Positions 287 to 60,432 of a stretch of DNA of 64,000 bases are shown piece by piece (the stretch's first letter is position 1; each line of letters begins with the position of its first letter). The stretch is from an uncultured delta proteobacterium. GTDB taxonomy: Bacteria; Desulfobacterota; Binatia; UBA9968. Both the position numbers and the translations under genes were made by a program. The stretch is from assembly GCA_963840855.1 (NCBI GenBank), contig CAWJBB010000041.1, positions 128,001 through 192,000 of the forward strand, read 5' to 3'. The notes under the pieces were generated by a model. It was given only the letters and a program-made list of their open reading frames with translations, ran no database searches and was not told the DNA's origin.

Positions 287-556
287 TGTTGATAAGATAC
301 CGCACTTAATCTGCAAGGAACAGGGCTAATAAGCCGGAAAAATCATAGAGCGCGCATAGATGAATAATCGGAGGTGTCGCTGTGAGAGGCTGGCCGGTTA
401 TCCACTTTGGGGCAGATGCTTTCGCTCATGAGGAAACCTTATTCGTCACACCCAAAATGCGCGCGCAAGATTGAGATTCCGGTTATTGGTTGTAAAAGTT
501 TCCGCCGTAAGTTTTAATACTCGTGTCCTGCCGAAGTTGTTGAAATCAAACATTGC

Positions 557-644
557 GGAGGGGTGGGAGAGCGGTTTAATCCACCGGTCTTGAAAACCGG
601 CGTCCATTCGTGGACCGCGAGTTCAAATCTCGCCCCCTCCGCCA
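557..644 (+). tRNA. tRNA-Ser (anticodon TGA)
   Basis: Acceptor stem GGAGGGG/CCCCTCC, discriminator G plus CCA, anticodon arm CCGGT-CTTGAAA-ACCGG, long variable arm GTCCA-TTCG-TGGAC, T arm GCGAG-TTCAAAT-CTCGC. Confidence 0.97.
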
Positions 645-870
645 ATTTTCAATACTGTCGCCCGTTGAATGCTACTTCCGGCAGAAGCGGTTTTCCGGAG
701 AAGCCTTTCCGTTTGCATTCTGCGTAGCTCGCCTGAAACCGAGTTTCGGGTACCCAGCACCCGCGGCTTATCTTAATGCGATCTTCTCCTCAGTTTCCTC
801 GCATGCCTCCCGTAGCGGTTTTCCTGTTACGAATGTAAAGAAACAAGACTTGACCCTCGGCGGCCATTTT
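585..870 (+). repeat. 286-bp direct repeat copy 1 (tRNA 3' part plus 226-bp island left arm)
   Basis: Near-identical to 2468-2753 (offset 1883, a few substitutions). Confidence 0.95.
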
Positions 871-1042
871 TAGCGATAACTCCCTGTTTTTTTGGCTTTT
901 GCGTTTTTTCACTCCCTGAATTATTTTTCATGAATTGCAGAAAAGCGGTCTTTTTGCAGGCGAATTGATAAATGAATTGATAAATGGGACGGGTCAACGT
1001 GTCCACGAGCGCCGTCTAACCATCTCTAGAGAGAGGGCAAAC

Positions 1043-1669
1043 ATGCTTAAACAGTTTTGGCAATGGCTCAAGGGAAACCTAGCCTATGACGTCACCAAGT
1101 ACGTACTGGAGTCGAAACTAATCATGTCGGCGATTAGTGCGGGCGTCGCTGGATTTATTGTTGTCTGGAATAACTATGGTCCTTTGGTTCTTTTTTTTGC
1201 CATTCTTCTTGCCGCTAGCCTGGCAGCTAACCTCGCTAGTGATATTAGCGCCTGGCGAAAGGCCATAGTGCGTGGCAAGCGTCACTATTTAGTTCCGGCG
1301 ATACTGCTCGGAATCGGCTTGATAGGTTTGTGGTATTGGGGCGGCGGTTATGAAGTCACTCTTGACCAGGCAATGCCTAATCATTCGGCGCTTTTCAGAC
1401 AGTGGAATGCCATACCGCTGACGGAGGTCGACCAGAGAGTCTTCCATAAGACCACGGTCGTTCTTGACGGTAAGCGTTTCAAGAAAGATTGCGTCTTCGA
1501 CAATGTGCAGTTTGTTTTCAACGGTACCGCGCCATACAAGGTCGGTGGCTGTAGGATCATGGGTAAAAACTCCATCTCGACAGGGAATCCCTCGTTGGAG
1601 CAATTTGCAATTTTGTTTTTGCAATTACGTTTTTACAACCCAGGGGTTTCGCGCGAATTACTCAAGTAG
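1043..1669 (+). CDS. hypothetical membrane protein (island 1 cargo)
   Basis: ATG 1043 preceded by GAGAGGG. About three hydrophobic segments followed by a soluble C-terminal domain. Lower GC than core genes. Confidence 0.6.
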   Translation: MLKQFWQWLKGNLAYDVTKYVLESKLIMSAISAGVAGFIVVWNNYGPLVLFFAILLAASLAANLASDISAWRKAIVRGKRHYLVPAILLGIGLIGLWYWGGGYEVTLDQAMPNHSALFRQWNAIPLTEVDQRVFHKTTVVLDGKRFKKDCVFDNVQFVFNGTAPYKVGGCRIMGKNSISTGNPSLEQFAILFLQLRFYNPGVSRELLK

Positions 1670-2079
1670 GGTGTTTCATCGAAACAAACGCCACGCCACG
1701 GAACGAAGCGCCGATAAGCAGCAACCGCACTTCGCGCAAGTAGGCTGGCTTTTCAGGAATTTTTCTTTGGAAATTCTGTTCATATCGTGGGTGGATTGGT
1801 GCATCTATATCGCCAGGCAAGGCGACCGGTCAAGCGAAAAAGTGGATGGTGCTCGGCGGGTCATTCGGACCTGCTGCTGGCTGAGGGCTAGTATGCTTCC
1901 TGACTTCCGGTCTATATCGTCCAGCGGGCGAACGGTCAAGGGACTCCTGCGCTTTCGGCCTCTTCCATGGTAAAATTATAGAATCTTTGCTGCGGGCGGA
2001 GGAGGTTGGGGATGAGTAACAACGTGGAAATAATTGGGTTGCCGCTTCAGTCGATTCTGGTGATGGGCGAGGCGATACG

Positions 2080-2290
2080 ATGAGCAGCATCAAGGCAACC
2101 TGCAAAGCAGCCACCAGCATCGAGCTGGCAGAACTTCAGCCGCTCCAAGGAAACCTGAAGGAATTGTCCCTCGCGGCGACGTGAACCTTTGCCCCGACAT
2201 CGACCGACTGTGCTATGAGTGTCTCGTCAAAGCATTCAGCGCCCGACTTATCGTGCATCCAGCCGAGCCGTCAGGCGAGCCTACGTGTTG
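2080..2290 (+). pseudogene. fused remnant: phage ParB-like N-terminal fragment joined out of frame to a Cys-motif gene fragment
   Basis: MSSIKATCKAATSIELAELQPLQGNLKELS resembles the start of phage ParB-like proteins (from memory). A second frame reads IVPRGDVNLCPDIDRLCYECLVKAFS. Confidence 0.45.
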
Positions 2291-2467
2291 CCGTTAGCTC
2301 AAAAGCTGCTTGGTTTCGGCAGTACAACCGTAGTACAAAACGCGTGTTGGAATGAGCCTATCTGTGGCGGAATGGGGAAACATGAAAGCGAAGGGAAAGC
2401 GCAAGAAAAACAGACGTTTAGAGCTTAAATCGTTATTTCTCATGCGCTTACGATACCCCTAGATAAG

Positions 2468-2753
2468 CGGTCTTGAAAACCGGCGTCCATTCGTGGACCG
2501 CGAGTTCAAATCTCGCCCCCTCCGCCAATTTTCAATACTGTCACCCGTTCAATGCTACATCCGGCAGAAGCGGTTTTCCGGCGAAGCCTTTCCGTTTGCA
2601 TTCTGCGTAGCTCGCCTGAAACCGAGTTTCGGGTACCCAGCAGCCGCGGCTTATCTTAATGCGATCTTCTCCTCAGTTTCCTAGCATGCCTCCCGTAGTG
2701 GTTTTCCTGTTACGAATGTAAAGAAACAGGACTTGACCCTCGGCGGCCATTTT
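2468..2753 (+). repeat. 286-bp direct repeat copy 2 (att junction between islands 1 and 2)
   Basis: tRNA 3' 60 nt from CGGTCTTGAAA to CCGCCA plus the same downstream arm as 645-870. Confidence 0.95.
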
Positions 2754-2968
2754 GTCGGAAGCGCGACCTTTCGTTACCGCATGGGCGTCGACTCCGGCAA
2801 CTACCAGGTGACATCGAGCGTTGTCATCAATTCAGGCCCGTCTATCGTCGATGTATTGAACTACGGGCGGTTCACCGACTTTTCCTTCAGCGCTGCTAAC
2901 TCCCAAGTGCCGACGTACTATATATTTGGAGAACCGATACGGTAATTAACCGACAAACATGAAAATGT

Positions 2969-3388
2969 CTAGCTGACCAATTCTAAGAAGTGTGGCCCTT
3001 CTTTGAACCGAGGATTGTTCCTAATCATATCGCGAGCTACGTCAAAAAAATCGCTCGGCCCGTAAACGAACCTATGCGAAAAGGCGACCTGGAGTGAATT
3101 GAGATTAAGCACGTTGTCAGGATTCATATTTATCGGTGTTCCATCTGTCATCCCAGCAATGAACTGTTCAATTAGAGCATCTCGTTGACCGAGCATTGTT
3201 TTAACTTCTGGACGAACTCCCCGCAATTCGACGTAGCGCTCATAGGCTTTAGTGAACTCTTCTTCATGACTTGGGCAAAGAATTCCAAGAGAGAACTTAG
3301 CACTAAGCGGCATGTAAATTTCGATACCTTCAACACCCAAACCAAGATTTCCGGCGAGCCCAAACGTTTTTTTGTTGGTGCCGAACAT
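2969..3388 (-). pseudogene. DUF4238-like protein, C-terminal fragment
   Basis: GLGVEGIEIYMPLSAKFSL...NLNSLQVAFSHRFVY resembles the DUF4238 C-terminal half. The N-terminal part is absent. Confidence 0.55.
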
Positions 3389-3491
3389 TATGGTGGGAAA
3401 TGTTCATCGGTTCCCTGTGGATCAGGTGATTACTTGGCTGCAAGGTGCGTGCGGTTAGGCACTTCTAAGGTAAGTTCCCGGCAGCTCGTGA

Positions 3492-4184
3492 TTACTGGAG
3501 TGCGCGGTTTGAGGTTCTCGTAGTGCCACTCTTACCGGGAAAGTCTTCAAACAATGTCTTGATCATTGTAGGTAACACAACCGACACCTGCTCGCTTGAA
3601 CCGCTGCTAACGACTTTCCCTTCATAAAGTTTCTTCATCTTGCTCTCAGCGAGCGCGTTCTTATCAAGCAGTTCAAACGTCAAAAACCGCGTGTAATGAG
3701 TTTGGGAAGTGACGCCGCTACCGACAACGCCGTACGTAGGCGTATAGGTGGTGCTTCCAGAATAGGTGCCAAAAGTCCCGTAGTTTTGAACAGTTCCGTA
3801 GGTTGTGCTTGAGGATACGCCGGTTTGGCCAAATATCGGATAGGACGAAACGACCTGCTTACCCGTATCAATCCCATAGGAAAAGACAACGATCAAGTCA
3901 GCCTCTGCTGATGGGGTCTCCTTGAAACCTTTTGCATCTAGTTCTTGCCTGACAACATTTTCGTAGGATCGATGTTCAAGACTATGCTCCTGTTCTTTCA
4001 ACGGAATCATTGCATAAGTGGTTCCAGCAAAGCCCTGTGGAAGATCATGAAAGACCACAACTTGAGAGCGTACCATCGTACAACCCGATTGCACTACTAT
4101 CAGAAATATCGCTACTAACAGAGTCCTCGCAGTGGCACTCTGCTGGCCGGAGCAGTCCAGCGTGATTCCGGGTAGTTTTCTCAT
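3492..4184 (-). CDS. DUF4136-like lipoprotein
   Basis: Hydrophobic stretch ending in lipobox-like QSGC, then LDAKGF...ADLIVVFSY and a terminal FEDFPG motif. Confidence 0.7.
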   Translation of the reverse strand: MRKLPGITLDCSGQQSATARTLLVAIFLIVVQSGCTMVRSQVVVFHDLPQGFAGTTYAMIPLKEQEHSLEHRSYENVVRQELDAKGFKETPSAEADLIVVFSYGIDTGKQVVSSYPIFGQTGVSSSTTYGTVQNYGTFGTYSGSTTYTPTYGVVGSGVTSQTHYTRFLTFELLDKNALAESKMKKLYEGKVVSSGSSEQVSVVLPTMIKTLFEDFPGKSGTTRTSNRALQ

Positions 4185-4396
4185 AGTCTCCTCTAGGGTG
4201 AAAACTGGAAACCTTCTATCACTACACCGTAGCGGCGGTCAATTGCATAATGAATAAGAGACAGAGGGGTGCGACCGCGATGTCATCTGCAACCAGCCAC
4301 GCAGTAGCACCCACAACCCGCCTGCGACAGTGAGAATTCCGACAGTAATGATTTCTTTATAGTCCAGCCATGTCTCCATTTGTGGGACTGATGCTT

Positions 4397-4797
4397 TCAC
4401 CTAACCATATCCACCGCGCGTGCTACGAGGCGCGTTTTGTCTTCGCCGCCTTTCAGACATTCCTTGTTCCAGATTCGAGCGAATCCAGGGTTGTTTTCAC
4501 TCGTGCTCATTTTGTCCTTGGTGATGACGGCGTTACCGCGCGTCATGCCTCCAAAGCCGTTTTGACTCCGATACTGATAGCAAACGACTTTCTCTTTAGG
4601 CATGATGTTGACGCTTTCAAGTTTGAAACTGTCAGGGTTTCGCATTGCATCGCGCAGGGTGAGCGCACCTGCTGTAGCCCATTGGAAGTCCTCATTTTCC
4701 TTGATCTGAGCCTGGTTTTAGGCTGTTGCCGCTCTGAGCAATTTCCGACGATCACGAGCAACACCACGACGCCGAATAAAAACGCCAATAACTTCAT
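4397..4797 (-). pseudogene. small exported protein, frameshifted
   Basis: Signal-like MKLLAFLFGVVVLL in one frame and MRNPDSFKLESV...VCYQYRSQNGFGGM in another. Confidence 0.55.
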
Positions 4798-5033
4798 AAT
4801 TCACCGCTTTCTAGTGGGAGAGGGACTCTAGGCTTATTGTGCGGTGGCTTTGCCCTCCAATTCTCCGACCCTACCACAGCGCCAAAAAATTCCTCCGCGA
4901 GCCTGGCGAGGTCTCGCAGCGGGGTTCCAGCGGCGATCTCTTTTTGAATTCGGCGGCCCGCTTGTGGATCACCCTTAGAGTAGGCCGCGTAGTCCAACGC
5001 GGCGATTTGCTCGCTGTTGTAAGTTTTCAACAT
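4794..5033 (-). CDS. hypothetical protein
   Basis: 79-aa ORF with GAGGAG upstream. Its stop overlaps the next start (ATGA). Confidence 0.5.
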   Translation of the reverse strand: MLKTYNSEQIAALDYAAYSKGDPQAGRRIQKEIAAGTPLRDLARLAEEFFGAVVGSENWRAKPPHNKPRVPLPLESGEL

Positions 5034-5184
5034 CGGTTTTACTCCTCCTCGTCGGCTTCGTCGGCTTCAAGTTTAGCTAGTTTCTGTCGCGAAACTCGCA
5101 ACTCACTGCTAAATCAAGAAGTTTTTACTTCTTAGCTTCATTTTTTACTTGACAAGCATGTATGCCTTATGGCACACATAGAAC

Positions 5185-5565
5185 ATGTCGCGCAAAACTG
5201 AAACTGCCGCCGATGTCGAGCAATGGTTCCAAAAACAAGCCGCAGGGCTGTGGCCGGCTGCGCTGGGGTCGTTGAGCCTGCGGCGAAGTCCCTGCGTGCG
5301 CGAACACTGCGCAGCCTGCCGCTCGGGCGAACAGCACCCCAGTCATATCCTATACGTGCGCATTAAAGGACGCCGCTTTGCGGTTTACATCCCAGAGCCA
5401 TTGGTCCCAGAGATACGGCTTAGCCTCGACAACGGCCGTGTTCTTCAGGAGCTGCTGCATCAAACCGCTCTTCGATATACCAAAGCCCTCAAGCATCAAA
5501 GGACCACAAAGATTCAAAAGATCAACCATGACAAGAGTCGTCGAACCGCAAGTCAGCTTCGCTGA
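5185..5565 (+). CDS. DUF6788-like IS accessory protein (C-terminus altered by a 1-nt deletion relative to copy 2)
   Basis: GSLSLRRSPCVREHCAACRSGEQHP Cys/His motif directly upstream of the transposase. Confidence 0.75.
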   Translation: MSRKTETAADVEQWFQKQAAGLWPAALGSLSLRRSPCVREHCAACRSGEQHPSHILYVRIKGRRFAVYIPEPLVPEIRLSLDNGRVLQELLHQTALRYTKALKHQRTTKIQKINHDKSRRTASQLR

Positions 5566-6946
5566 TCTGGAATTTCTCACTCAGGGGATCGATCTCGACC
5601 CGATTCTCAAGAGGATGTCCGACTTCCTCGATTATCGGCCACAGATCATCGAGCCGGTGCGCCAAGATCTTCAGCTGGGTCTGAAAAAGCCTGCCACCGG
5701 CCGCACAGCCATGACCCCGGCGCAGGTGCTTCGGTCGCTGATCCTGATGCGAGTGAAGAACTGGGACTATCGGGAACTCAGCGAACGAATCGCTGACGGA
5801 TACACGTTGCGCCGATTCACGGGTTTTTACAGCCGGCGCGTACCCAAGCATGACGCTTTCAATCGGGCCTTTAATAAACTGCACCCCAAAACCATACAAG
5901 CCATCAATGACTTGGTCCTTAAAGCTGCCGTCGATCTGGGACTGGAGGACGGCAAGAGACTGCGCGTCGATACGACGGTCACCGAAACCGATATCCATCA
6001 TCCAACCGATAATACTTTGCTCTGGGATGTAGTGCGCGTCCTGACGCGGCTCATCGATCGTCTCGGAAAACTTCTTCCCAATGGGATCGATAACTTTACT
6101 AACCGCACACGCTGTGCACGCCGTCGCATGCAAGAGATCCAACGCATGACAGCGAGGCAACGCCACACCCAGCAAAAGGGTAAATATCGCCAACTCATCG
6201 GGACCACCGAGCAGGTCGTCCAAAATGCCCGAGGGGTGCTCGAAAAGACCAAAGATCAATGCGCTGTTGACCTGCTGGACGACATTATCATTAGCGAGCT
6301 TCGAAGAAAGATCGATCACTACTGCCAACTCGGCACCCGCGTCATCGATCAGAGCAGCCGGCGCGTGCTCAAGGGAGAGCAGGTTCCAACCGAGGAGAAA
6401 ATCTACTCGATCTTTGAACCCCACAGTGATCTGATCAAGCGGGGGAAAGTACAAAAGCCGATGGAGTTTGGCCACAAGATCTTTCTCGCTGAAAGTGCCC
6501 GCGGTTTGATCACCCAGTACCGCGTGCTTGAAGGTAATCCCTCCGATCACATCCACGTCACGCCGTCGCTGAAGCGTCATCAGGAGACTTTCGGTTTGGC
6601 TCCCGATTGGTACACTGGTGACCGCGGCTTTTTCAGCGCTGCGAACATCAAAGCATGCCAGGATAGCACTGTGAAGCTCGTCTGCATTCCGCAGTGCGGT
6701 GGCAAAAGGACCTCCCAACGCGAAGCGCTCGAAAAGAGCTCAGAGTTCAAGAAAGGACAACGCTTCCGCGCAGGCATTGAGGGCCGCATATCCGTGCTCT
6801 TTCGCGGCCGCGGCATGAAGCGCTGTTTGGCCGAGGGACCTGAGCGCTTTGAGATGTTGGTCGGCGCCGCTGTGCTTACCAACAACCTCATGAACATCGC
6901 TCACCTGTTAAACCAAAAGAACAAACGGCTACGACGAGCGGCGTAG
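5528..6946 (+). CDS. DDE transposase (IS5-like/ISNCY)
   Basis: LRVDTTVTETDIHHPTD, EFGHK, GDRGF and RAGIEGRISVL motifs. Start set by comparison with copy 2. Confidence 0.93.
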   Translation: MTRVVEPQVSFADLEFLTQGIDLDPILKRMSDFLDYRPQIIEPVRQDLQLGLKKPATGRTAMTPAQVLRSLILMRVKNWDYRELSERIADGYTLRRFTGFYSRRVPKHDAFNRAFNKLHPKTIQAINDLVLKAAVDLGLEDGKRLRVDTTVTETDIHHPTDNTLLWDVVRVLTRLIDRLGKLLPNGIDNFTNRTRCARRRMQEIQRMTARQRHTQQKGKYRQLIGTTEQVVQNARGVLEKTKDQCAVDLLDDIIISELRRKIDHYCQLGTRVIDQSSRRVLKGEQVPTEEKIYSIFEPHSDLIKRGKVQKPMEFGHKIFLAESARGLITQYRVLEGNPSDHIHVTPSLKRHQETFGLAPDWYTGDRGFFSAANIKACQDSTVKLVCIPQCGGKRTSQREALEKSSEFKKGQRFRAGIEGRISVLFRGRGMKRCLAEGPERFEMLVGAAVLTNNLMNIAHLLNQKNKRLRRAA

Positions 6947-7248
6947 CCACTGTCGCTCTCAAACGTTCATTCGACGCTCCCTGGGCGTAGTCTTTTCTGC
7001 CATCACTGCGCGGTCCATCGAACACCCCACACGACTCTTTGCTGTCCACTTTCAGCTCAAAATGATAGAACTATGTCAGAGAAAAAACTTGGCCCATGTC
7101 GCACCCGTAAGATTTTTGCGAGTTTCGCGACAGAAACTAGCTAGTTTCTGTCGCGAAACTCGCAACTCACTGCTAAATCAAGAATTTTTTACTTCTTAGT
7201 TTCATTTTTTACTTGACAAGCATGTATGCCTTATGGCACACATAGAAC

Positions 7249-7596
7249 ATGTCGCGCAAAACTGAAACTGCCGCCGATGTCGAGCAATGGTTCCAAAAAC
7301 AAGCCGCAGGGCTGTGGCCGGCTGCGCTGGGGTCGTTGAGCCTGCGGCGAAGTCCCTGCGTGCGCGAACACTGCGCAGCCTGCCGTTCGGGCGAACAGCA
7401 CCCCAGTCATATCCTATACGTGCGCATTAAAGGACGCCGCTTTGCGATTTACATCCCAGAGCCATTGGTCCCAGAGATACGGCTTAGCCTCGACAACGGC
7501 CGTGTTCTTCAGGAGCTGCTGCATCAAACCGCTCTTCGATATACCAAAGCCCTCAAGCATCAAAGGACCACAAAGATTCAAAAGATCAAACCATGA
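7249..7596 (+). CDS. DUF6788-like IS accessory protein
   Basis: 115 aa. Its stop overlaps the transposase start (ATGA). Confidence 0.8.
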   Translation: MSRKTETAADVEQWFQKQAAGLWPAALGSLSLRRSPCVREHCAACRSGEQHPSHILYVRIKGRRFAIYIPEPLVPEIRLSLDNGRVLQELLHQTALRYTKALKHQRTTKIQKIKP

Positions 7597-9011
7597 CAAG
7601 AGTCGTCGAGCCGCAAGTCAGCTTCGCTGATCTGGAATTTCTCACTCAGGGGATCGATCTCGACCCGATTCTCAAGAGGATGTCCGACTTCCTCGATTAT
7701 CGGCCACAGATCATCGAGCCGGTGCGCCAAGATCTTCAGCGGGGTCTGAAAAAGCCTGCCACCGGCCGCACAGCCATGACCCCGGCGCAGGTGCTTCGGT
7801 CGCTGATCCTGATGCGAGTGAAGAACTGGGACTATCGGGAACTCAGCGAACGAATCGCTGACGGATACACGCTGCGCCGATTCACGGGTTTTTACAGCCG
7901 GCGCGTACCCAAGCATGACGCTTTCAATCGGGCCTTTAATAAACTTCACCCCAAAACCATACAAGCCATCAATGACTTGGTCCTTAAAGCTGCCGTCGAT
8001 CTGGGACTGGAGGACGGCAAGAGACTGCGCGTCGATACGACGGTCACCGAAACCGATATCCATCATCCAACCGATAATACTTTGCTCTGGGATATAGTGC
8101 GCGTCCTGACGCGGCTCATCGATCGTCTCGGAAAACTTCTTCCCAATGGGATCGATAACTTTACTAACCGCACACGCTGTGCACGGCGTCGCATGCAAGA
8201 GATCCAACGCATGACAGCGAGGCAACGCCACACCCAGCAAAAGGGTAAATATCGCCAACTCATCGGGACCACCGAGCAGGTCGTCCAAAATGCCCGAGGG
8301 GTGCTCGAAAAGACCAAAGATCAATGCGCTGTTGACCTGATGGACGACATTATCATTAACGAGCTTCGAAGAAAGATCGATCACTACTGCCAACTCGGCA
8401 CCCGCGTCATCGATCAGAGCAGCCGACGCGTGCTCAAGGGAGAGCAGGTTCCAACCGAGGAGAAAATCTACTCGATCTTTGAACCCCACAGTGATCTGAT
8501 CAAGCGGGGGAAAGTACAAAAACCGATGGAGTTCGGCCACAAGATCTTTCTCGCTGAAAGTGCCCGCGGTTTGATCACCCAGTACCGCGTGCTTGAAGGT
8601 AATCCCTCCGATCACATCCACGTCACACCGTCGCTGAAGCGTCATCAGGAGACTTTCGGTTTGGCTCCCGATTGGTACAGTGGTGACCGCGGCTTTTTCA
8701 GCGCTGAGAACATCAAAGCATGCCAGGATAGCACTGTGAAGCTCGTCTGCATTCCGCAGTGCGGTGGCAAAAGAACCTCCCAACGCGAAGCGCTCGAAAA
8801 GAGCTCAGAGTTCAAGAAAGGACAACGCTTCCGCGCAGGCATTGAGGGCCGCATATCCGTGCTCTTTCGCGGCCGCGGCATGAAGCGCTGTCTGGCCGAG
8901 GGACCTGAGCGCTTTGAGGTGTTGGTCGGCGCCGCTGTGCTTACCAACAACCTCATGAACATCGCTCACCTGTTAAACCAAAAGAACAAACGGCTACGAC
9001 GAGCGGCGTAG
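7593..9011 (+). CDS. DDE transposase (IS5-like/ISNCY)
   Basis: 472-aa intact ORF with the same DDE motifs as copy 1. Confidence 0.93.
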   Translation: MTRVVEPQVSFADLEFLTQGIDLDPILKRMSDFLDYRPQIIEPVRQDLQRGLKKPATGRTAMTPAQVLRSLILMRVKNWDYRELSERIADGYTLRRFTGFYSRRVPKHDAFNRAFNKLHPKTIQAINDLVLKAAVDLGLEDGKRLRVDTTVTETDIHHPTDNTLLWDIVRVLTRLIDRLGKLLPNGIDNFTNRTRCARRRMQEIQRMTARQRHTQQKGKYRQLIGTTEQVVQNARGVLEKTKDQCAVDLMDDIIINELRRKIDHYCQLGTRVIDQSSRRVLKGEQVPTEEKIYSIFEPHSDLIKRGKVQKPMEFGHKIFLAESARGLITQYRVLEGNPSDHIHVTPSLKRHQETFGLAPDWYSGDRGFFSAENIKACQDSTVKLVCIPQCGGKRTSQREALEKSSEFKKGQRFRAGIEGRISVLFRGRGMKRCLAEGPERFEVLVGAAVLTNNLMNIAHLLNQKNKRLRRAA

Positions 9012-9343
9012 CCACTGTCGCTCTCAAACGTTCATTCGACGCTCCCTGGGCGTAGTCTTTTCTGCCATCACTGCGCGGTCCATCGAACACCCCACACGAC
9101 TCTTTGCTGTCCACTTTCAGCTCAAAATGATACAACTATGTCAGAGAAAAAACTTGACCCATGTCGCACCCGTAAGATTTTTTGCGAGTTTCGCGACAGA
9201 AACTAGCTAGGGCGTGCGCCATCCACGTGTTGCTTTCCGCGTCCAGCGCTTCTGCGATGGTCCCATTTTAAATTTTTGCTTTCTGAGCGTAGTTGAGCAA
9301 TTCAGGTGCCAGTTTTTTGCGCAACGGGTTTTTACAGGCAAAT

Positions 9344-9580
9344 ATGAAAACTGCGGGGCTACCACTATCGCCGCGCGGCTATAGCAAACTGGAAGGTCGT
9401 CGTAATCAACGCAGGAATGAGAAAGGGTTTTTCGTATCGCCGCACGGCGATAGCATTGTCCCTCGCGGCGACGTGAACCTCTGCCCCGACATTGAGCGTC
9501 TCTGCCACCGGTGCCTGGTGAAAGCATTCAGCAGCCGCGTGGTCGTGCGTCCGCCCGTGCCGGACGACGAGCCGACGTGA
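9344..9580 (+). CDS. small Cys-motif hypothetical protein (C-x6-C-x2-C)
   Basis: IVPRGDVNLCPDIERLCHRCLVKAFS is conserved at the protein level with 2163-2290 and 10968-11102. Confidence 0.5.
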   Translation: MKTAGLPLSPRGYSKLEGRRNQRRNEKGFFVSPHGDSIVPRGDVNLCPDIERLCHRCLVKAFSSRVVVRPPVPDDEPT

Positions 9581-9830
9581 AAGTTCGAGCCGATTATCCA
9601 CATCTTTTCGACACGAGTCCGAAACCTGCCGGTCCCCTCGAAGGTATGATGAAGGCGGCGTAATTATTATTGACTTCTGAATCTGACGGCTTGGCGCGGG
9701 TGTGTCTGGCTCTGACGAAAACTAACTCTGAAGCCCCATGGCGGTGTCCCAGCCACATGAAAACTATCGGTTCAGTTGCAGCGAGTTCGGGTCCGAACCG
9801 GTCATTAGGCAGGCCGATGGCTGATGTAAT

Positions 9831-10238
9831 CTATAAGCCCGGAAGAAACAATAAAACGACAATGAGCACGCTCTCCCCAACGAGTAACAAAAGCGCTGCT
9901 TTCTCTCTGCAGCGAACATTGCGGTGCTTACGGCTCTCAGTTTCGATATTCGCTTTTCTCTGCTCTTCAGTCAGTTCAGGCCCAGAAAACATCCTGCCAA
10001 TGTCGAGGTAGCGTTCCTTCGTGACCCAGAAATTCCATATCATGAGCAAAAGCGATACAAGGCAACAAGCGACAAGAAGCAAGGAAATCGGCCTGTTTAC
10101 GGCTGGAGAGAGCAACAACAAAATCGAAAACGCGGTTAACATGATGCCGTTAACAGTCAGGAGAGCGTTCCAAAGTTGGAAGTTGGATTCGCCAGCCTTG
10201 TTTACGAAATGCTGCAGAACCGGACTGAAGTTCGCCAT
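9831..10238 (-). CDS. hypothetical membrane protein
   Basis: 135 aa with three hydrophobic segments. Confidence 0.6.
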   Translation of the reverse strand: MANFSPVLQHFVNKAGESNFQLWNALLTVNGIMLTAFSILLLLSPAVNRPISLLLVACCLVSLLLMIWNFWVTKERYLDIGRMFSGPELTEEQRKANIETESRKHRNVRCREKAALLLLVGESVLIVVLLFLPGL

Positions 10239-10284
10239 ACTAACTTGGGTAACGCCTCAACGGTTCGGTCAGTCATGCGGCGGC

Positions 10285-10683
10285 CTATTTCCGCCCTACG
10301 CATGGAAAAGCGTTCCCCAGGCTTTCGAGAGCGACATGGAAGAAATCCGCGTGAAGACGTTGCGGATTTTTCTCCGCATAGGCCACATAGATAGAGATAA
10401 GTTGTGTTAGTTTGCTGTTTGATGGGGCACAGACCCCATGAATTGGGCCAGTGTCGTCGGCTTGCACGATTACCTTCTGAATAACACCGAACGCTCCCCA
10501 ACAAATTCCAGTTTCGTAATTCGTTGGGAACCTCACATAATCACCCGTAACTTCGGCCTTCGCTATCAGTCTACATGCTGAGAGCAGCTCTTCCGCAGAA
10601 AAGGCAAGAGCGGATTTGGAACCGCTTGCGAAAAAAAAGACGAGCAAGAACAGTCGAAGCGCTGTTGCCACTCGCATTTCCAT
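10285..10683 (-). CDS. Rap1a/Tai-family immunity-like exported protein
   Basis: Signal peptide, then ELLSAC...CWG...VCAP...VAYAEKNPQRLH...LGNAFPC, the Rap1a Cys pattern and terminal FPC. Confidence 0.75.
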   Translation of the reverse strand: MEMRVATALRLFLLVFFFASGSKSALAFSAEELLSACRLIAKAEVTGDYVRFPTNYETGICWGAFGVIQKVIVQADDTGPIHGVCAPSNSKLTQLISIYVAYAEKNPQRLHADFFHVALESLGNAFPCVGRK

Positions 10684-11668
10684 GATCTTTTTTTGGGCCA
10701 AACCCAGTGAGTATTACTGACCAGTAATATTACCCGATCCCAAGAATCAAGGTTCAGGCAAGATTTAACTTTTTAGTCAACGAGTTGTCAATCATTTTTC
10801 GTTCGCGTCCATTCGGGTGCGTTTGACGGCACCGGAGGTCCTCGTCGTGGGTTTCTGCGAACCGACGCGCCAGGGGGTCGATCTTGTTTCCCAGGCCATG
10901 CTGCCTCGTCCTTCGTCCCCGCGACAACACTTTTTCCATTGACCTCCGCCCTGAGGAAACCTGAAGAATTGTCCCTCGCGGCGACGTGAACCTTTGCCCC
11001 GATGTCGAGCGTCTGTGCCATGAGTGCCTCGTCAAAGCGTTCAGCGCCAGCTTGGTCGTGCTTCCGCCTGAGCCGGACGACGCGCCGACGTGCAGCTGTT
11101 GAATCTCGGTTTAAAAAGGCACTCTCCTCGTAAAATCACCAAAACTGCCGTCATAACGTGGTTATAAATGGCGTTGGAGCGCGGAAAAAAAATTCTTGGT
11201 GCGCGCGCAACAACGGACCCAGGATCGCAACTGCCCTTTGGGCCGGACATCAGCCCCGAGAAAACGAGAAGTCTTTACCGGGCAAAATCAAAAAACGGTG
11301 GACGATGTTCGGGCCGATAAGGTGGGCGAGTCGCGATGGGGCTGTCGCAGGCGCAACTGGGACGCCTGCTGAAGTATGCGGGGCCTAACACCATCTCAAG
11401 AAAAGAGCGCGGTGAGCACTCGGTTCAGCATGTCGAGGCGATTGCAGTGATGTACCTGGCGACGCTCGCGCTGTGCAGAGAGGAGGTAAAAATGGAGTGG
11501 CCTTGAGGAACGCCGTGCGTCTTGAGCGGCGTCACACCACGCATATTCCGCTGCTCACCTGGCGCACGACGCAATGACAACGCAAACTCAACGGCGCGGC
11601 TCTTGATGATTTCGTGGTCGTACCCTTCATTTTTTCCCGTTCGTTCACGTCTTTCTCCTTTTCTTTTG

Positions 11669-12133
11669 TCACGGGCTTTCACGGTCTGGTTTCTGCCTCA
11701 GTTCCACGACCCAAAAGCCTGTAATGTTCACAGCAAGCCAAACAAGCCCCCCGAGCAGCTTGCTTCCCGTGAAGTATGCGAGGATTTCAGCCGCCACACC
11801 ACCCAAGATGGAGAAAGCGACCAACTCCAACATTGCGACCGCGAGCCATTTGAGAAAGGTCAAACCCCGCTTCCAACAGAACCAAATCACGAAAGCGTAA
11901 GAGGCGCTCATCACAGCGAACAGCTGTACGCGGATTAATGGGTCCCACCCTGATGGGTCCCGCCACACGACAATGATGAGGGGGGGCATGAGGAAACACC
12001 ACCATCCGACCACCCCCGCTCCATACCTCTTCGCAGCTCTGCCAAGCGCGTTAAATACCCGCCGAGAACCTCGCCAGTGGGAACTGCCTAATGCGTCCAT
12101 CTCGCCTCCCTCTGCTTCGCCTCTCGCTTTCAC
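11669..12133 (-). CDS. hypothetical membrane protein
   Basis: Four hydrophobic segments. Start uncertain. Confidence 0.4.
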   Translation of the reverse strand: MKARGEAEGGEMDALGSSHWRGSRRVFNALGRAAKRYGAGVVGWWCFLMPPLIIVVWRDPSGWDPLIRVQLFAVMSASYAFVIWFCWKRGLTFLKWLAVAMLELVAFSILGGVAAEILAYFTGSKLLGGLVWLAVNITGFWVVELRQKPDRESP

Positions 12134-12175
12134 CCATAGCGCATCAATCAGTTTTTTGTCTGTCCTCGGTTTCGG

Positions 12176-12430
12176 TTACTTCCTCTCCTTTTTGCCCTGG
12201 CTGCGGCTTTGGGGGTGTCTATCACGGATGATTTTTTGGGCCTTGTCCACAAATGCCTTCTCCGCTTTGTCTTTTGTGGGAAATGGCTCGGTTTCCAACT
12301 TGACGCTTGGGTTAGATTCGAGGTAGCCCCGAGCGACCCAACTTTCAGTCCCTGCGACCCGTACCACATCATACATAAATGTTTCTCCCCTGTGTTTGTA
12401 GGGGATTTGCGTGTGTGAATCTCTAGCCAT
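12176..12430 (-). CDS. hypothetical protein
   Basis: 84-aa ORF next to the island right arm. Confidence 0.4.
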   Translation of the reverse strand: MARDSHTQIPYKHRGETFMYDVVRVAGTESWVARGYLESNPSVKLETEPFPTKDKAEKAFVDKAQKIIRDRHPQSRSQGKKERK

Positions 12431-12648
12431 AATACACCCTTTATAGTATAGCGCTCCGAGAAAAAAACCTCTTTGGTCCTATCCAAAGGCTGTGGTTTCC
12501 GCAGTACAATCACAGTACAAAACGCGTGTTGTAATGTGCCTATTTGTGGCGAAATGTGGTGGAATGAGGAAATACGAAAAGCGAGGAAAAGCGCAGGGAA
12601 ACAGAGCGTAACTCATGTTTTCCCTGCGCCGATGCCCTCCTAGGCAAG

Positions 12649-12707
12649 CGGTCTTGAAAACCGGCGTCCATTCGTGGACCGCGAGTTCAAATCTCGTCCC
12701 CTCCGCC
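12649..12707 (+). repeat. attR-like copy of the tRNA-Ser 3' part
   Basis: Matches 585-643 with one C>T change. The 5' half of the tRNA is missing. Confidence 0.93.
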
Positions 12708-12850
12708 GATTCTGACCGACACCTATCCTTCCCCTCGCCGAAGTTGGAGTAATGGAGTGGTAGAGTAATGGGTAGGACGTGCATCAGCGCGGTTGCGCAT
12801 GGGGGCGCGCTCTGTTTACCTATCTTCAAAAGGATGGAGGGTAATTCACG

Positions 12851-14254
12851 ATGGCGAGTTCGGCAGCGCCGACATTGCAGTTTCTCGGGGCCGCGGGCGG
12901 GGTGACCGGTTCGAAGTTTTTGTTCGCCAGGAACTCCGATCTAGGTACTGATCGATTGCGGGTTATTCCAGGGGCTTAAGGAACTGCGCTTGAAAAACTG
13001 GGCGCCCGTGCCCATCGACCTGGCGCGGCTGCGCGCGGTGGTGTTGACCCACGCGCACATCGATCACTCCGGCTATCTGCCGCGGCTCGTCGCCAAGGGC
13101 TATCGCGGTCCCATCTTCGCGACCCCCGGAACTTGCGATCTGCTGGGAGTCATGTTGCCCGACGCGGCGCACTTGCAGGAAGAAGAAGCGCGCTACGCCA
13201 ACCAGAAGGGTTATTCGAAGCATGCCCCGGCGTTGCCGCTTTATACGGTGGAAGACGCCGAGCTCGCCCTGCGGCTTTTGCGGCCAACGAAAAATAGCGA
13301 AGCCGTCGAAGTGGCCAAAGGCGTGTTCGTCGATTTCGGCCGGGTCGGTCATATACTCGGCGCGGGCTCGGTGCGGCTCTCCTTCGAGGACAACGGCGGA
13401 AAAAAATATTTGCTGGATTCCGGCGATCTGGGGCGTTACCAGAGGCCCATTCTCAAAGATCCCGAACCGGCCAAGCCCGCCGACTGGCTGCTAATCGAAT
13501 CGACTTATGGCAATCGCTTGCACCCCCAGGAATCGGAACAAGAGCTGGGAAATATTATCACGGAGGTTGCGGATCAGCACGGCTGCTTGATAATTCCAGC
13601 ATTTGCCATCGGCCGAACCCAAGAACTGCTCTACACGATTCGCAAGCTGGAGGATGAAGGCGCGATCCCGGCGCTCCCGGTGCATGTCGATAGCCCGATG
13701 GGCATCGAAGCAACAGAAATTTATTGCCGGCATACCGACGAGCACGATTTCGAGATGGCGTCGTTGTGCAATCACGCGCGCTCCCCGCTCAGCTCGCGGC
13801 ATTTGACCGTGCACAGAACGCCGAACAGTCGAAGTCGATTAATAAGCTCAAAGGTCCGCTGATCATTGTTTCGGCGAGCGGCATGGCGACGGGCGGGCGC
13901 GTTCTGCATCATCTCAAGCAACGCCTACCCGATCCCAATACCACGGTGCTCTTGGCCGGCTACCAAGCCGAAGGCACGCGCGGCCGGCTGCTGCAAGACG
14001 GCGCCAAAGAGATCAAGCTGCTCGGCGAAGTCGTTCCCGTGCGCGCTAAGACAAAACTGCTCGATGGTTTTTCCGCCCATGCGGATCAAGGTGAAATCCT
14101 GCGCTGGCTTGGGACCTTTCAAAAAGCGCCGCGCAAAACTTACATCGTTCACGGCGAGCCGGCGGCGGCTTCGGCCTTGGCGGATGTCATCGGTGAACGG
14201 CTCAAGTGGCCCGTGGAGATCGCCAAATTTAATCAAAAGGTATCGCTGGCATGA
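12851..14254 (+). CDS. MBL-fold beta-CASP metallo-hydrolase/ribonuclease (two apparent frameshifts, ~12943 and ~13822)
   Basis: LQFLGAAGGVTGS, LIDCGLFQG, THAHIDHSG, GHILG, IESTYG, FSAHAD and VHGE motifs spread over three frames. Confidence 0.9.
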
Positions 14255-14455
14255 TTCAAGGGGCTCGTTCAAACAGTTCAAGCCGTTCAAGTAGTTCAAG
14301 CCGTTACAGATAGCAGAAAGCATTTTGAACCGTTTGCATGTTCTTATTAGCGGGCACAAAAATTAACTGCACTCAGCCGGTTCGAGTAGTCCAAGGCGTT
14401 ACAAACATCCGGAAACGATTTGAACGACTTGAACGTCTTGAACGATTGGAACGTA
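14254..14455. repeat. GTTCAA/TTGAAC 9-nt-period palindromic repeats (two adjacent units)
   Basis: gttcaaacagttcaagccgttcaagtagttcaag ... ttgaacgacttgaacgtcttgaacg. Confidence 0.75.
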
Positions 14456-17047: not shown

Positions 17048-18152
17048 ATGTCAATTTTAAAGGTCGAAGGCGTTACCAAACGGTTCAAAGATCTCACCGC
17101 CTTAGACAACGTATCATTCGAGTTCGATAGGGGAATTCTTTCCTTCCTCGGGCCTTCGGGTTGCGGCAAGACGACGTTATTAAGATCCATCGCCGGCCTC
17201 GAAATTCCCGACGCGGGGGCGATTTCCATCGCCGATCAATTGCAGACCTCCATTGAGGAAGGCGTGCTGGTGCCGCCGTATTCCCGCGAAATCGGGTTCG
17301 TATTTCAAAACTATGCGCTGTGGCCGCATATGACGGTCTTCAAAAACGTCGCCTTTGGCCTCAAGTTGCGAAAGCTGGCGGAGGTAGAAATTCGGCGCAA
17401 AGTCCTCGACCGCCCTGGACCTGGTGGGCTTGCAGGGAAGGGAAGAGCGCTACCCTGCGCAGCTAAGCGGCGGGCAGCAACAGCGGGTTGCGCTGGCGCG
17501 GAGCCTGGCGTTGGAGCCGAGATTGATTTTGCTCGATGAACCGCTGAGCAACCTCGACGCCAAGCTGCGCGAAGAGATGCGCGTCGAAATCCGCAAGCTG
17601 ATTAAAAAGGTTGGCATCAGCGCGCTCTACGTCACCCATGATCAGGAGGAAGCTTTTACGATTTCCGACGCGGTCATCGTGATGGAAAGCGGCCGTATCC
17701 TCCAGTACGCCACGCCGGATGAAATCTATAACCGCCCGGCGCATCCGTTCGTTGCATCCTTTATCGGCCATTCGACGTTGATCGACGGCAAGGTTGTCAA
17801 GGTCGAAAGCGGGCTATGCGAAGTTGCCGTTCCTGAACTCAGCAACGTCACCTTGGTCTCGCCGGTGTCGGGGCCGGTGGCGGCTGGGGACCTCTGCAAA
17901 GTTGTAATTCGGATGAGTGAGATTCATTTGAGCCATGAGCGATTTCCCGACGGGACGGTCAACGTGTTGGAAGGGCAGATGACCAGCCGCGAGTTTCGCG
18001 GCGGTCTTACTGACCACCGGGTTCAGGTCGGGTCGCGCGAACTCGTGGTGACGTCACACAAGCTCTGTCCGATGATTCGGCTCGACGGCGAATCTGGCAA
18101 GACTTTCCTATCCATCGATAAATCCGCTATTAGCGTAATTATCGGCCATTAG
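17048..18152 (+). CDS. ABC transporter ATP-binding subunit, Fe3+/polyamine class (frameshift ~17411)
   Basis: GPSGCGKT in the first frame. LSGGQQQR, LLDEP and YVTHD in the second. Confidence 0.9.
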
Positions 18153-36440: not shown

Positions 36441-36521
36441 TGTTCACGCCGTTCAAAACGTTCAAGCGGTGGAACAGTCCGCAGCGCGTTTTGAACAACT
36501 TGAACGGTTTGAACTTTTTTG
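36441..36521. repeat. GTTCAA/TTGAAC palindromic repeat between convergent genes
   Basis: gttcacgccgttcaaaacgttcaag ... ttgaacaacttgaacggtttgaac. Confidence 0.75.
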
Positions 36522-52541: not shown

Positions 52542-52581
52542 GTTGACCGCAAATCAAATGCCGCGTCTCGGGAGCAAAATC

Positions 52582-55468
52582 ATGAGCAATTCATCGAGTA
52601 GAGACTACTTTGAAATTGAAGCGGAGCTTAAGAAACGCGTCGAAGGGGACATTCTTTTCGACGGTTACTCGCGCTTGCTTTACTCCACGGATGCGTCGAT
52701 CTATCAGATCGAACCCATCGGCGTAGTCGTGCCGCGCCACAAGGGTGACGTGCAGGCGGTCATCGAGCTCGCCAATAAGTTGAATGTGTCCGTCTTGCCG
52801 CGGGGCGGCGGGACTTCGCTGGCGGGGCAAACGGTGGGCCACTCCATCGTTTTGGACTTCTCCAAGTACATGCAGAACGTACTCGAGGTTAACAAGGAAG
52901 AGCTCTGGTGCCGGGTCCAGCCGGGATTGGTGCAGGACGAACTGAACGCTTATGTCCGCGGCATGGGGCTGCAATTCGGCCCCGACACCTCGACTTCCAA
53001 TCGCGCCACCATCGGCGGCATGATCGGCAACAACTCCGCCGGAGCCCACTCACTGACTTACGGAAAAACCCTCGACCATGCCATCGAGCTGACGGTGCTT
53101 TTGTCGGACGGGAGCGAAGCGGTGCTAAAGGATCTCTCGCCAGCAAGCAGTGGAAAGCAGAGGCCGGGTGGACACCGTCGAGGGCAGGGCGTACCGCGAG
53201 GTATTGCGCTTAGCCGAGCAGCATAAGAACGAGATTCTGGCGCGCTATCCGAAAATCATGCGGCGGGTGTCGGGGTACAATCTCGATGAATTCATCAAGG
53301 CCCAGCCGTGCAATCTTTCGCGCATCGTCGTCGGCTCCGAGGGAACCTTGGCCACGGTGGTCGAGGCCAAGATGCGGTTGGTGCCCAAACCGAAGTGGAC
53401 GGCCATGGACGTTATTCACTTCAACGACGACATCGAAGCGCTCCAGTGCGCGCAAGTGATTTTGCAAACGGCCCCCTACGCCATGGAATCCACCGATAAG
53501 ATGATTCTCAATCTTGCGCGCGGCAACATCGTGCAGTCGAGAAGATTGAGTTTCGTGCAGGGGAATCCCGATTCTCTCCTGATGGTGGAGTACGCGGGGG
53601 AAAGCGAAGACGAAGTCAAAGAGCAGATCTACAAACTGGAGGAAATTCGCAAGCGAGAAAACATCGGCTACGCCGCGACCCTCGCTTTCAAGCCGGAGGA
53701 AGTGAAAGCCATCTGGGGCCTGCGCAAGGCCGGACTCGGCTTGCTTCTGGGCACCACCGGCGACAAGAAACCCATCGCTTTTGTCGAAGACGCCGCGGTC
53801 GCGCCGGCAAAGCTCCCTGAGTTCATCAAACGTTTCAAAAGCATTGTTAGCGGTCACGACGCCGTGGCCGGCTATTATGGCCACTGCTCCGTGGGCTGCA
53901 TGCACATTCGCCCGCTCATCAACCTCAAGGAAATGAGCGAAATGCATAAAATGGTTTCAATCGCAGAGCAGGTTTGTGACCTCGTCCTCGAGTTTAACGG
54001 CGCGATGTCGGGCGAGCATGGCGACGGCTTGGCGCGGAGCCATTTTAACAAGAAACTCTTCGGCCCGGCGCTGTACGACGCGTTTCGTCAGGTGAAACGC
54101 GCCTTCGATCCGAAAAATTTAATGAATCCCGGCAAGATCGTCGATGCGCCGGGCATGACGGAATCGCTCAAGATCAGCCCGCAATACAAAACTTGGCAGC
54201 CGCAAACAACGCTGGACTTCAGCGCGCAAGGTGGCTTCGTGCGCGCGGTCGAAATGTGCAGCGGCATGGGCGAATGCCGCAAGAAGCTCGACGGCACCAT
54301 GTGCCCGTCCTATATGGGCACCCTCGACGAAGAGCACTCGACGCGGGGACGCGCTAACGCCCTGCGCTCCGTGCTTTCGGGAAAAATTCCGAAAGAGGAA
54401 TTCACCGGCAAACGACTATATGAGGTCATGGATCTTTGTCTCGAATGCAAAGCGTGCAAAGCCGAGTGCCCGTCCAACGTCGATATGGCCAAGCTCAAAT
54501 ACGAATTTTTGGACCACTACCACCGAGCCAACGGCCTGCCGCTGCGCAATAAAATTTTTGGCGCCATTGAGGCGGTCAACCAGCTTGGCTCGATCCTCGC
54601 GCCTCTATCCAATTGGCTGGTGAATACGTCACTGAACCGCTGGCTGATGGAAGCTTTTACGGGCATCGACCGCCGCCGGCCATTGCCCGAGTTCGCCGGC
54701 GAAACTTTCGCGGACTGGTTCCGGAGTCATCAGCCCGAAGGTGATGGCTCAAATGGCGACGTCGTGTTGTTTCACGACACCTTCAACAATTTTAACACCC
54801 CAAACGTCGCCAGAGCCGCGACGCGTTTTCTGGAAAAATCCGGCTACCGAGTATTGTTGGTCGACAAAAAGTGCTGCGGTCGGCCGATGATTTCGAAAGG
54901 GATGCTCGGCCAGGCGAAAGAAAACGCCCACTGGAACGTAAACCGCCTTACGCCCTATGCTGAGAAGGGGACGCCAATCGTTGGCCTGGAGCCTTCATGC
55001 TTGTTGACGCTGCGCGACGAATATCCGGAGTTCCTCCGCACCAACATCGCCAAGAAAGTCGCCGAGAACAGCTTTCTCTTTGAAGAGTTCGTTATGCGCG
55101 AGCAGGGAGCCGGCCGCATAAAACTTGAGAGCAAAAGCCAGACCGGAAAGGTTTTACTGCATGGCCACTGCCATCAAAAGGCGCTTGTCGGTACAGCCCC
55201 GACGGTCAGCATGTTAAAAGCCGCCGGCTTTGACGTAAGTGAAGTTGACTCCGGCTGCTGCGGTATGGCTGGCTCCTTCGGCTTTGAGAAAGAACATTAC
55301 GATCTATCGGTAACCATCGGCAATCGCCGCCTCGCGCCGGCGGTCAAAGCCGCAGCTCCCGAGGTTGAGATCGTCGCGCCCGGTATTTCTTGCCGCCAGC
55401 AGATTGACCATCTAGCAGGAAGGAAGGCGAAGCACCCGGCCGAGTTATTGTGCGACAGCGTCAAATAA
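52582..55468 (+). CDS. FAD-linked oxidase fused to Fe-S/CCG domains (GlcD/GlcF-like; frameshift ~53145)
   Basis: YSTDAS, RGGGTSLAGQ, GSEGTL, SGEHGDG, CLECKACKAECP and CCG motifs. Confidence 0.9.
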
Positions 55469-58929: not shown

Positions 58930-59051
58930 CTTTCGTATGTTCCCAACGTTCGCATCTTTCAAATCAGTTCCGGATCTTTGTAACTGCTTGAACGGTTTGC
59001 ACATCTTGAACGCCTTGAACCCCCGGCTCGCGGCCTTCTTTGTGGTTGAAT
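58930..59051 (+). repeat. GTTCAA/TTGAAC composite repeat, copy A
   Basis: Homologous over ~120 bp to 60161-60288. Confidence 0.75.
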
Positions 59052-60160: not shown

Positions 60161-60288
60161 CTTTCGTATGTTCAAACGTTCCAAACGTTCAAGTCGTTTC
60201 AAATAGATTCTGGATATCCGTAACGGTGAACGTTCTGAACATCTTGAACGCATTGAACCCGCGGCACGCGGCCTTCTTTGTGTTTGAT
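60161..60288 (+). repeat. GTTCAA/TTGAAC composite repeat, copy B
   Basis: ctttcgtatgttc...catcttgaacgc.ttgaaccc...cgcggccttctttgtg shared with copy A. Confidence 0.75.
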
Positions 60289-60389
60289 TTTCTTTGCGCG
60301 TTAGCTTTTCGCGAAGCGTATATGAGACCGGCTTAGTTTTACAAGCACTGTTCTTGGCAAAGCGGAAAGTTAGGCGTTGAAAACCAAGC

Positions 60390-60432
60390 GGCGATGCCAG
60401 GATTGAACTGAATTCTCCAACGACTTAATCCT
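60390..60432 (+). repeat. 43-bp direct repeat copy 1
   Basis: GGCGATGCCAGGATTGAACTGAATTCTCC identical at 62919-62947. Both copies end in AATCCT. Confidence 0.85.

Follow-up and report, generated by a model that had tools for sequence, protein, structure and literature searches.

How did the 3' part of one tRNA-Ser gene come to be present three times in a bacterial region that encodes no recognizable integrase? The question is raised by a 64,000-nt stretch of DNA (hereafter, the window) from an uncultured delta proteobacterium (Desulfobacterota; Binatia; UBA9968; assembly GCA_963840855.1, contig CAWJBB010000041.1, positions 128,001–192,000 of the forward strand). A previous sequence-only reading of the window had suggested that non-autonomous cassettes, or else decayed remnants of one element family, are stacked at this gene. 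The best explanation of the region is a composite genomic island, produced by at least two related integrative elements that inserted successively at one tRNA-Ser(TGA) gene. Positions 645-12711 probably represent accreted, integrase-less and largely decayed islands of the kind known as cis-mobilizable elements (CIMEs).

The only tRNA gene detected in the window by ARAGORN is a tRNA-Ser(TGA) gene, whose 3' part is found again at two downstream positions:

557-644, + strand: intact tRNA-Ser(TGA) gene (ARAGORN; Rfam RF00005, 58.1 bits)
585-647, + strand: att core copy 1, 63 nt, beginning in the anticodon stem and ending 3 nt beyond CCA
2468-2530, + strand: att core copy 2, 63 nt, no differences from copy 1
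12649-12711, + strand: att core copy 3, displaced native tRNA 3' fragment with two changes relative to copies 1 and 2

Thus, the claim that the tRNA 3' part occurs three times (585, 2468 and 12649), each time from the anticodon stem onwards, was borne out, and the repeat proved to be a 63-nt block. A 49-nt pattern of the tRNA 3' part gave three matches in the 64 kb (584, 2467 and 12648, all on the + strand) and none in shuffled sequences. Identity begins with CGGTC, one base into the anticodon stem, and ends 3 nt after the encoded CCA; the anticodon-loop part is intact in all three cores. The assignment of the identity block to the anticodon-loop type of att sites is supported by sequence evidence, the tRNA-Ser 3' part from 585 on being the attL copy of the core.

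The inserted region (645-12711) is composed of unit A (645-2530, 1,886 bp) and unit B (2531-12711, 10,181 bp). Judged by sequence alone, both units keep attL and attR, since among 63 nt their cores show either no differences or two, and both arms are present. The changes in core copy 3 convert a C of the T-stem to T and the CCA to CCG. Three related tRNA-Ser loci from other genomes (L031, L076 and L008, see below) retain C and CCA at these positions, and pairing in the T-stem also calls for C; two such changes are expected of a displaced native fragment that has been freed from selection.

Each unit is bounded by arms next to the cores:

648-870, + strand: left (P'-type) arm of unit A, non-coding, 96.4% identical to 2531-2753
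2531-2753, + strand: left (P'-type) arm of unit B
2300-2467, + strand: right (P-type) arm of unit A, with AGTACAA at 2321 and 2332
12484-12648, + strand: right (P-type) arm of unit B, with AGTACAA at 12503 and 12514

Both segments had been said to start with the same arm, and we confirmed this: the left arms are 96.4% identical over 223 nt and their similarity ends at the same base (870 and 2753), after GGCCATTTT. The left arm of unit A additionally contains an 11-nt direct repeat, AGCGGTTTTCC, at 686 and 814. The right arms (about 165 bp) are also related, as had been proposed, with 87% identity over their first 64-67 nt (2311-2377 versus 12493-12559) and 77.5% identity, gaps included, when the core is added (2300-2530 versus 12484-12711). 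A pair of AGTACAA heptamers with 11-nt spacing is present in each of them. No motif of 7 nt or longer common to left and right arms was found, and the left arm contains no conserved open reading frame (ORF). It should be mentioned that we also considered the left arm as an RNA or regulatory element and rejected this, as it has no Rfam match, no excess structure (the RNA fold, with z = -0.92, is no better than those of shuffled sequences) and no conserved outward promoter. Within 400-13200 two promoter-like sites were detected versus 6.9 expected, neither of them within an arm.

The sequence-only reading further stated that the cargoes of the two units differ. This is correct in general, but a third colinear module common to both units had been missed. 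It is formed by copies of a small Cys-rich ORF:

2140-2295, + strand: backbone module copy 1, 3' end of the small Cys-rich ORF, no usable start codon
9344-9580, + strand: backbone module copy 2, complete 78-aa small ORF
10946-11100, + strand: backbone module copy 3, shortened by an in-frame stop and by the loss of 1 nt in comparison with copy 1

The segments 2140-2295 and 10946-11100 are 81.4% identical, and the additional copy in unit B (9455-9579) shows 78-84% identity. The module corresponds to the 3' end of a small ORF: in one frame, 18 of 36, 12 of 25 and 13 of 26 differences between copies fall at the third codon position, and the amino-acid changes are conservative. The family is rare. 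When 1.84 billion representative proteins were searched in full with HMMER, six matches were obtained, the query included; the relatives are small mosaic ORFs that have either the N- or the C-terminal half in common, and one 346-aa repeat protein among them appears spurious. Searches of Pfam, PHROGs, NCBIfam and PADLOC gave no match. Leads from the ESM Atlas were limited to unnamed or weak, zinc-ribbon-like ones, and the AlphaFold model had a predicted local distance difference test score (pLDDT) of 52.7, too low for use; the candidate roles of excisionase or zinc ribbon were dropped on these grounds.

The evidence for insertion comes from loci that lack the island. The exact 48-nt tRNA core had no matches in 185,579 species genomes, while a degenerate tRNA pattern retrieved at least 120 tRNA-Ser loci from other genomes, 80 of them with 10-kb flanks. 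Among the matches listed, the nearest tRNAs are those of L031 (96.7%) and L076 (94.9%), followed by L092, L087 and L008, and the nearest loci belong to metagenome-assembled genomes labelled "uncultured delta proteobacterium" and Candidatus Binatia. The empty tRNA site, whose existence the sequence-only reading had left to be checked, is present in L031, L076 and L087. In L031 a beta-CASP metallo-hydrolase gene directly follows the tRNA 3' part, and positions 12649-14241 of the window align without a break to positions 10001-11580 of the locus. In L076 the tRNA is followed by the beta-CASP gene (10256-11634) and then by CopA (11710-13252), and in the short locus L087 the beta-CASP gene starts about 250 bp behind the tRNA. 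In the window, the same gene lies behind the last core:

12853-14254, + strand: native flank, beta-CASP metallo-hydrolase gene in more than one frame (Pfam; frame change near 13811-13823)

Since the tRNA is contiguous with the beta-CASP gene in these three loci, the chromosome resumes at 12712 and the region 645-12711 is inserted DNA. Relative to L031 and L076 the insertion starts exactly at the 3' end of the tRNA gene. The island also has a foreign composition: unit A has a GC content of 50.5% and unit B, its insertion sequences (IS) left aside, one of 51.6%, versus 55.8% in the rest of the window (standard deviation 1.9%, 2-kb windows).

No recombinase could be assigned to this island. Positions 640-12720 are overlapped by 159 stop-to-stop ORFs of 45 aa or more, of which 130 were compared with Pfam at E ≤ 0.05; the other 29 all lie inside the two IS copies (5532-9135). 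In agreement with the sequence-only reading, these 130 ORFs gave no match to PF00589 or PF00239, the tyrosine and serine recombinase families, or to any other recombinase domain, and the only transposase-type matches in the island were those of the IS. No recombinase was found among 43 larger ORFs of the remaining 51 kb of the window, which carries housekeeping genes (rho, rpsB, tsf, pyrH, frr, uppS, cdsA, dxr, rseP and others), and a 105-aa ORF running off the left end of the window had no family at 1e-5. Neither unit contains integration or transfer genes or a conjugation or relaxase remnant, and the island has no replication module (primase, helicase or polymerase). Phage hallmark genes were likewise not revealed: besides the IS transposase, a PHROGs search of 17 ORFs gave three weak matches (E 0.001-0.008), to one family of unknown function and two regulator families.

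It should be mentioned that three housekeeping-type genes outside the island are split over two or more frames, namely those of the beta-CASP hydrolase (12853-14254), an ABC ATPase (17048-18152) and an FAD-linked oxidase (52543-55468). These are either real pseudogenes or assembly indel errors, and they bear on the trust that can be placed in absence claims based on ORFs.

Further members of the family were searched for in several collections. Neither the arms (blastn) nor 18 island ORFs (tblastn) had a match in the at least 120 tRNA-Ser loci of other genomes, and no further arm copy exists elsewhere in the 64-kb window. Blastn searches with 645-2760 and 9211-12711 gave no match in the plasmid collection or in 50,697 phage records. 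Translated ORFs of the arms (610-870 and the right-arm part of 12482-12829) had no match in 5.8 billion proteins; they did not match even themselves, as no gene is called there, and this result is uninformative.

The tRNA-Ser loci of other genomes nevertheless provide a background for the island. In the 3.5 kb downstream of the tRNA, 191 ORFs have a length of 180 aa or more; the 120 of them that reach 230 aa were scanned. Integrases with the PF00589 domain were found at four of the loci listed, all of Nitrospira type:

L007, 9923-11221: integrase gene
L017, 2497-4128: integrase gene
L030, 7974-9338: integrase gene
L048, 8865-10172: integrase gene

All of them lie on the strand opposite to tRNA-Ser(TGA), with an open frame running into the tRNA 3' end. 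We considered whether the left arm is a 3' remnant of such an opposite-strand integrase and rejected this possibility, as tblastn of the four integrases against the window matched only the tRNA overlap. In L048 an ORF near the integrase gene matches the Zot family typical of filamentous phages.

A second copy of the locus's own tRNA 3' part was found in three of the 120 loci listed (L007, L028 and L053). In L007 it encloses a 7.2-kb island with an integrase; the repeat of about 23 nt covers the T-loop and acceptor end, an att sublocation unlike that in the window. The repeat of L028, about 25 nt at the T-loop/acceptor end, encloses 2.9 kb. In L053 (a contig of 8,122 bp) a 3.0-kb interval (about 300-3265), with a 395-aa ORF lacking a Pfam family, is associated with a tRNA 3' copy of about 63 nt that starts in the anticodon stem. 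By its sequence, L053 appears to carry, in an unrelated lineage, a further island of this att class without an integrase. No recognizable integrase was present among the ORFs of at least 70 aa in the L028 and L053 intervals, and thus short integrase-less intervals between tRNA fragments are not peculiar to this window.

The cargo of the two units and the insertion sequences of unit B are as follows:

1043-1669, + strand: sole sizeable ORF of unit A, 208 aa from ATG, an ORF without known relatives (ORFan)
3492-4184, - strand: DUF4136 protein (PF13590, 8.4e-18), lipoprotein-like N-terminus by inspection
5074-7144, + strand: ISNCY-family insertion sequence copy 1 (NF033593, 9.7e-123), with terminal inverted repeats
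7138-9210, + strand: ISNCY-family insertion sequence copy 2, 98.8% identical to copy 1, transposase frame split
9831-10238, - strand: small membrane protein with only weak 8xMP/SLATT-like matches (PF24838, 0.038; PDLC03795, 3.1e-4)
10285-10701, - strand: Rap1a-family immunity protein (PF18602, 1.5e-09), no adjacent effector
11336-11506, + strand: small helix-turn-helix protein, Xre/HTH_31-like (PF13560, 3.7e-05, under the curated cut-off)

Att sequence accounts for about 460 bp of unit A, which otherwise contains one ORF and a backbone remnant. Within the limits of a word search, the ORF at 1043-1669 matched only itself in 5.8 billion proteins; it has no Pfam, NCBIfam or PADLOC family, and its N-terminal part appears hydrophobic on inspection of the sequence. 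Unit B carries several genes on both strands, including several further small membrane or unassigned ORFs. Together, the Rap1a gene and the neighboring gene of a small membrane protein possibly represent an orphan fragment of an immunity or conflict system that the island carries as cargo. The two ISNCY copies are arranged head to tail, with the right inverted repeat of copy 1 abutting the left inverted repeat of copy 2, and a single 4-bp AGCT (or CTAG) is found at each of the three junctions. They differ by 23 substitutions and 2 indels and therefore are two real copies, not an assembly duplication. The sequence of the pair suggests either that a second copy inserted into the target duplication of the first one or that the pair is an old tandem dimer.

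The stacking of two related att-flanked units at one tRNA gene, as claimed in the sequence-only reading, is thus borne out by the cores, the arms and the backbone module. The arrangement is a classic outcome of successive site-specific integrations, two in number, at one tRNA gene with an anticodon-centered att site; its unusual feature is that neither unit has an integrase. Such a locus could have arisen as follows. A tyrosine-type integrase, not encoded in the window, would have recombined the attP of an element with the tRNA gene, the crossover lying in or near the anticodon loop. The element-borne attP would have consisted of the right arm, the 63-nt tRNA-like core and the left arm. Each integration would have restored the tRNA gene with element DNA and displaced the earlier copy downstream, and the outcome would be the order tRNA, unit A, core, unit B and native 3' fragment. 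A cognate integrase together with an excision factor from elsewhere in the cell could still excise the units, singly or together, so that mobilization in trans is possible. Several features are, at the same time, signs of decay: truncated copies of the backbone ORF, IS invasions of unit B, the mutated native fragment, the 3.6% divergence of the left arms and the ORFan cargo. On present evidence, the units are ageing remnants rather than a cassette system that is still active. The sequence-only reading had offered decayed remnants of one family only as an alternative; with its truncated backbone ORF, mutated native fragment and IS invasion, the locus fits this alternative better.

Some observations weigh against decayed islands as the explanation. 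Neither an integrase-bearing ancestor nor another member of the arm family was found in the window, the at least 120 tRNA-Ser loci, the plasmids or the phages, so that the loss of an integrase is something we infer. The flanks in view extend 556 bp upstream of the tRNA gene and 51 kb downstream, within a source contig of 333,537 bp. Plain decay would often leave a fragment of an integrase pseudogene; such a pseudogene inside each island had been named as one of the signs of ordinary decay, and no recombinase fragment is recognizable within either unit. The left arms end at an identical base and are 96.4% alike, as against 77-81% for the right arms and the backbone module. A common edge of this kind would not result from independent deletions; it agrees either with a discrete functional module or with gene conversion acting on the 286-bp tandem repeats. 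Finally, the full arms and the intact anticodon-loop part of the core in both units are compatible with present-day mobility. The same features (the sharp left-arm boundary with its excess of identity, complete arms and intact crossover region in both units, and the lack of integrase fragments) would be expected of a non-autonomous family in which elements consisting of a full attP and small cargo depend for their movement on an integrase encoded elsewhere and, captured again and again at the tRNA, build up a cassette array. Unit A, with merely 1,886 bp, would suit such a family, and the AGTACAA pair with its 11-nt spacing in both right arms resembles a protein-binding site. Nevertheless, we consider this origin unlikely. 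There are only two units, no other arm copy in any of the collections searched, no motif of 7 nt or longer common to left and right arms, and no integrase candidate; of the three copies of the backbone ORF two are cut short, a sign of decay rather than of design, and unit B is multi-gene, coded on both strands and IS-invaded. For similar reasons (two units, a multi-gene unit B, no other arm copies, and no integrase, attI or attC equivalent) the integron-like gene-capture array proposed in the sequence-only reading was not upheld. A more specific version of the non-autonomous family is a long shot: Binatia-like bacteria would harbor a hitherto undescribed family of miniature elements, each an attP plus cargo without an integrase, which an unlinked tyrosine integrase would shuttle in and out of tRNA-Ser. 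Its discrete, maintained modules would be the conserved 223-bp left arm, the right arm with paired AGTACAA and the small Cys-rich backbone protein as a possible directionality factor, and the tRNA gene would serve as a capture site for small cargo.

It can also be supposed that the units descend from a single family of prophages or phage satellites, that deletions have reduced them to their ends and that they retain no mobility. The coding density looks low, many short ORFs lack families, a small helix-turn-helix protein is encoded near the right end of unit B, and both the two changes in the displaced tRNA fragment and the 3.6% divergence of the left arms would agree with this. We regard a phage origin as improbable, given that no phage hallmark gene was revealed (the PHROGs matches being weak apart from the IS transposase), that no DNA match was found among the phage records and that the anticodon-loop part is intact in all three cores. 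Segmental duplication or repeat-induced misassembly of a metagenome-derived contig, with no integration involved, is hardly credible as the source of the repeats. The frame-split beta-CASP, ABC ATPase and FAD oxidase genes suggest that the assembly may be error-prone, and the exact tRNA core is absent from the species genomes searched. However, the modules diverge unequally (96%, 81% and 77%), the repeats have distinct substitutions and the IS copies differ at 25 positions, a pattern not expected from collapsed or duplicated reads. In addition, the repeat begins in the anticodon stem, the insertion starts exactly at the tRNA 3' end in comparison with L031 and L076, and the GC content of the island lies below that of its flanks. 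Accretion of related elements at the tRNA-Ser(TGA) gene, followed by decay, is the reading that we retain.

Other repeats were detected in the window outside the island. A TTGAAC hexamer recurring every 9 nt forms intergenic arrays, with 12 matches to a three-unit pattern versus 0 in shuffled sequences:

14267-14308, - strand: TTGAAC array
14420-14452, + strand: TTGAAC array
36442-36474, - strand: TTGAAC array
36491-36514, + strand: TTGAAC array
58988-59020, + strand: TTGAAC array
60226-60258, + strand: TTGAAC array

Two of the sites are facing pairs, one pair being located immediately upstream of a CopA-type ATPase gene. The arrays may be regulator-binding arrays or a small family of repeat elements. 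Near the right end of the window, intergenic DNA also contains two sets of direct repeats, 60385-60432 / 62914-62961 (48 nt, 88%) and 58989-59049 / 60227-60287 (61 nt, 89%).

Among known systems, integron arrays resemble the locus only loosely, in the promoter-distal stacking of units without a recombinase of their own. Unlike integrons, it has no intI, attI, Pc or attC hairpin sites; its boundaries are formed by direct repeats of a tRNA-derived core next to arms of about 165 and 223 bp, and its unit B is multi-gene with genes on both strands. The tycheposons of Prochlorococcus are closer. In a preprint (bioRxiv 10.1101/2020.12.28.424599), Prochlorococcus islands are described as stacked elements with only a partial tRNA between them, plus degenerate remnants. 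As in those stacks, integrations occurred successively at one tRNA, older elements were pushed inward and are decaying, and the cargo is varied. In contrast, tycheposons, according to the same text, encode a recombinase of their own, which is of the tyrosine or rarely of the serine type, and as a rule a replication module; the units here are without both. In that text tRNA-Ser(TGA) is named in a figure legend, as a label example only.

The tandem islands in tRNA genes (tDNA) collected by Islander share the intact tDNA with displaced 3' fragments, the anticodon-centered att site and the tandem array. According to PMC4383910, an anticodon-centered att site was assigned to 2,083 of 3,919 Islander islands, and tandems of at least two members numbered 125. 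In the terms used for such islands, the locus has a tRNA gene and 3' fragments in the same orientation, the island is absent in relatives, and the integrase gene is missing. Islander, as this text describes it, requires an integrase gene per array member, and the units here would be filtered out; island finders that demand an integrase would miss this region. It nevertheless represents a clean, precisely bounded island accretion at a tRNA gene in a poorly sampled lineage.

CIME is the existing name for integrase-less, att-flanked elements movable in trans (PMC5704250). As it stands, the locus adds little beyond the known biology of CIMEs and tandem islands. If activity in trans were demonstrated for the units, they would rank with the smallest integrative elements known to target a tRNA gene (1.9 kb) and offer a useful model of mobility sustained by arm sequences alone. 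The CIMEs of streptococci, of the ICESt1/ICESt3 type, differ from the units in several respects. No parent integrative and conjugative element (ICE) or integrative and mobilizable element (IME), cognate integrase, conjugation or relaxase remnant was found here; the host, judged by the nearest tRNA loci, belongs to an uncultured Binatia-like lineage; and both tandem members are integrase-less, whereas the cases described usually pair a CIME with an ICE or IME. According to the same source, CIMEs are otherwise alike in having attL/attR-type repeats at a tRNA 3' end and no integration or transfer genes, and in being stacked head to tail with a related element, one att copy lying between the two. 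As with CIMEs, mobility of the units at tRNA-Ser(TGA) would hinge on the integrase of another element.

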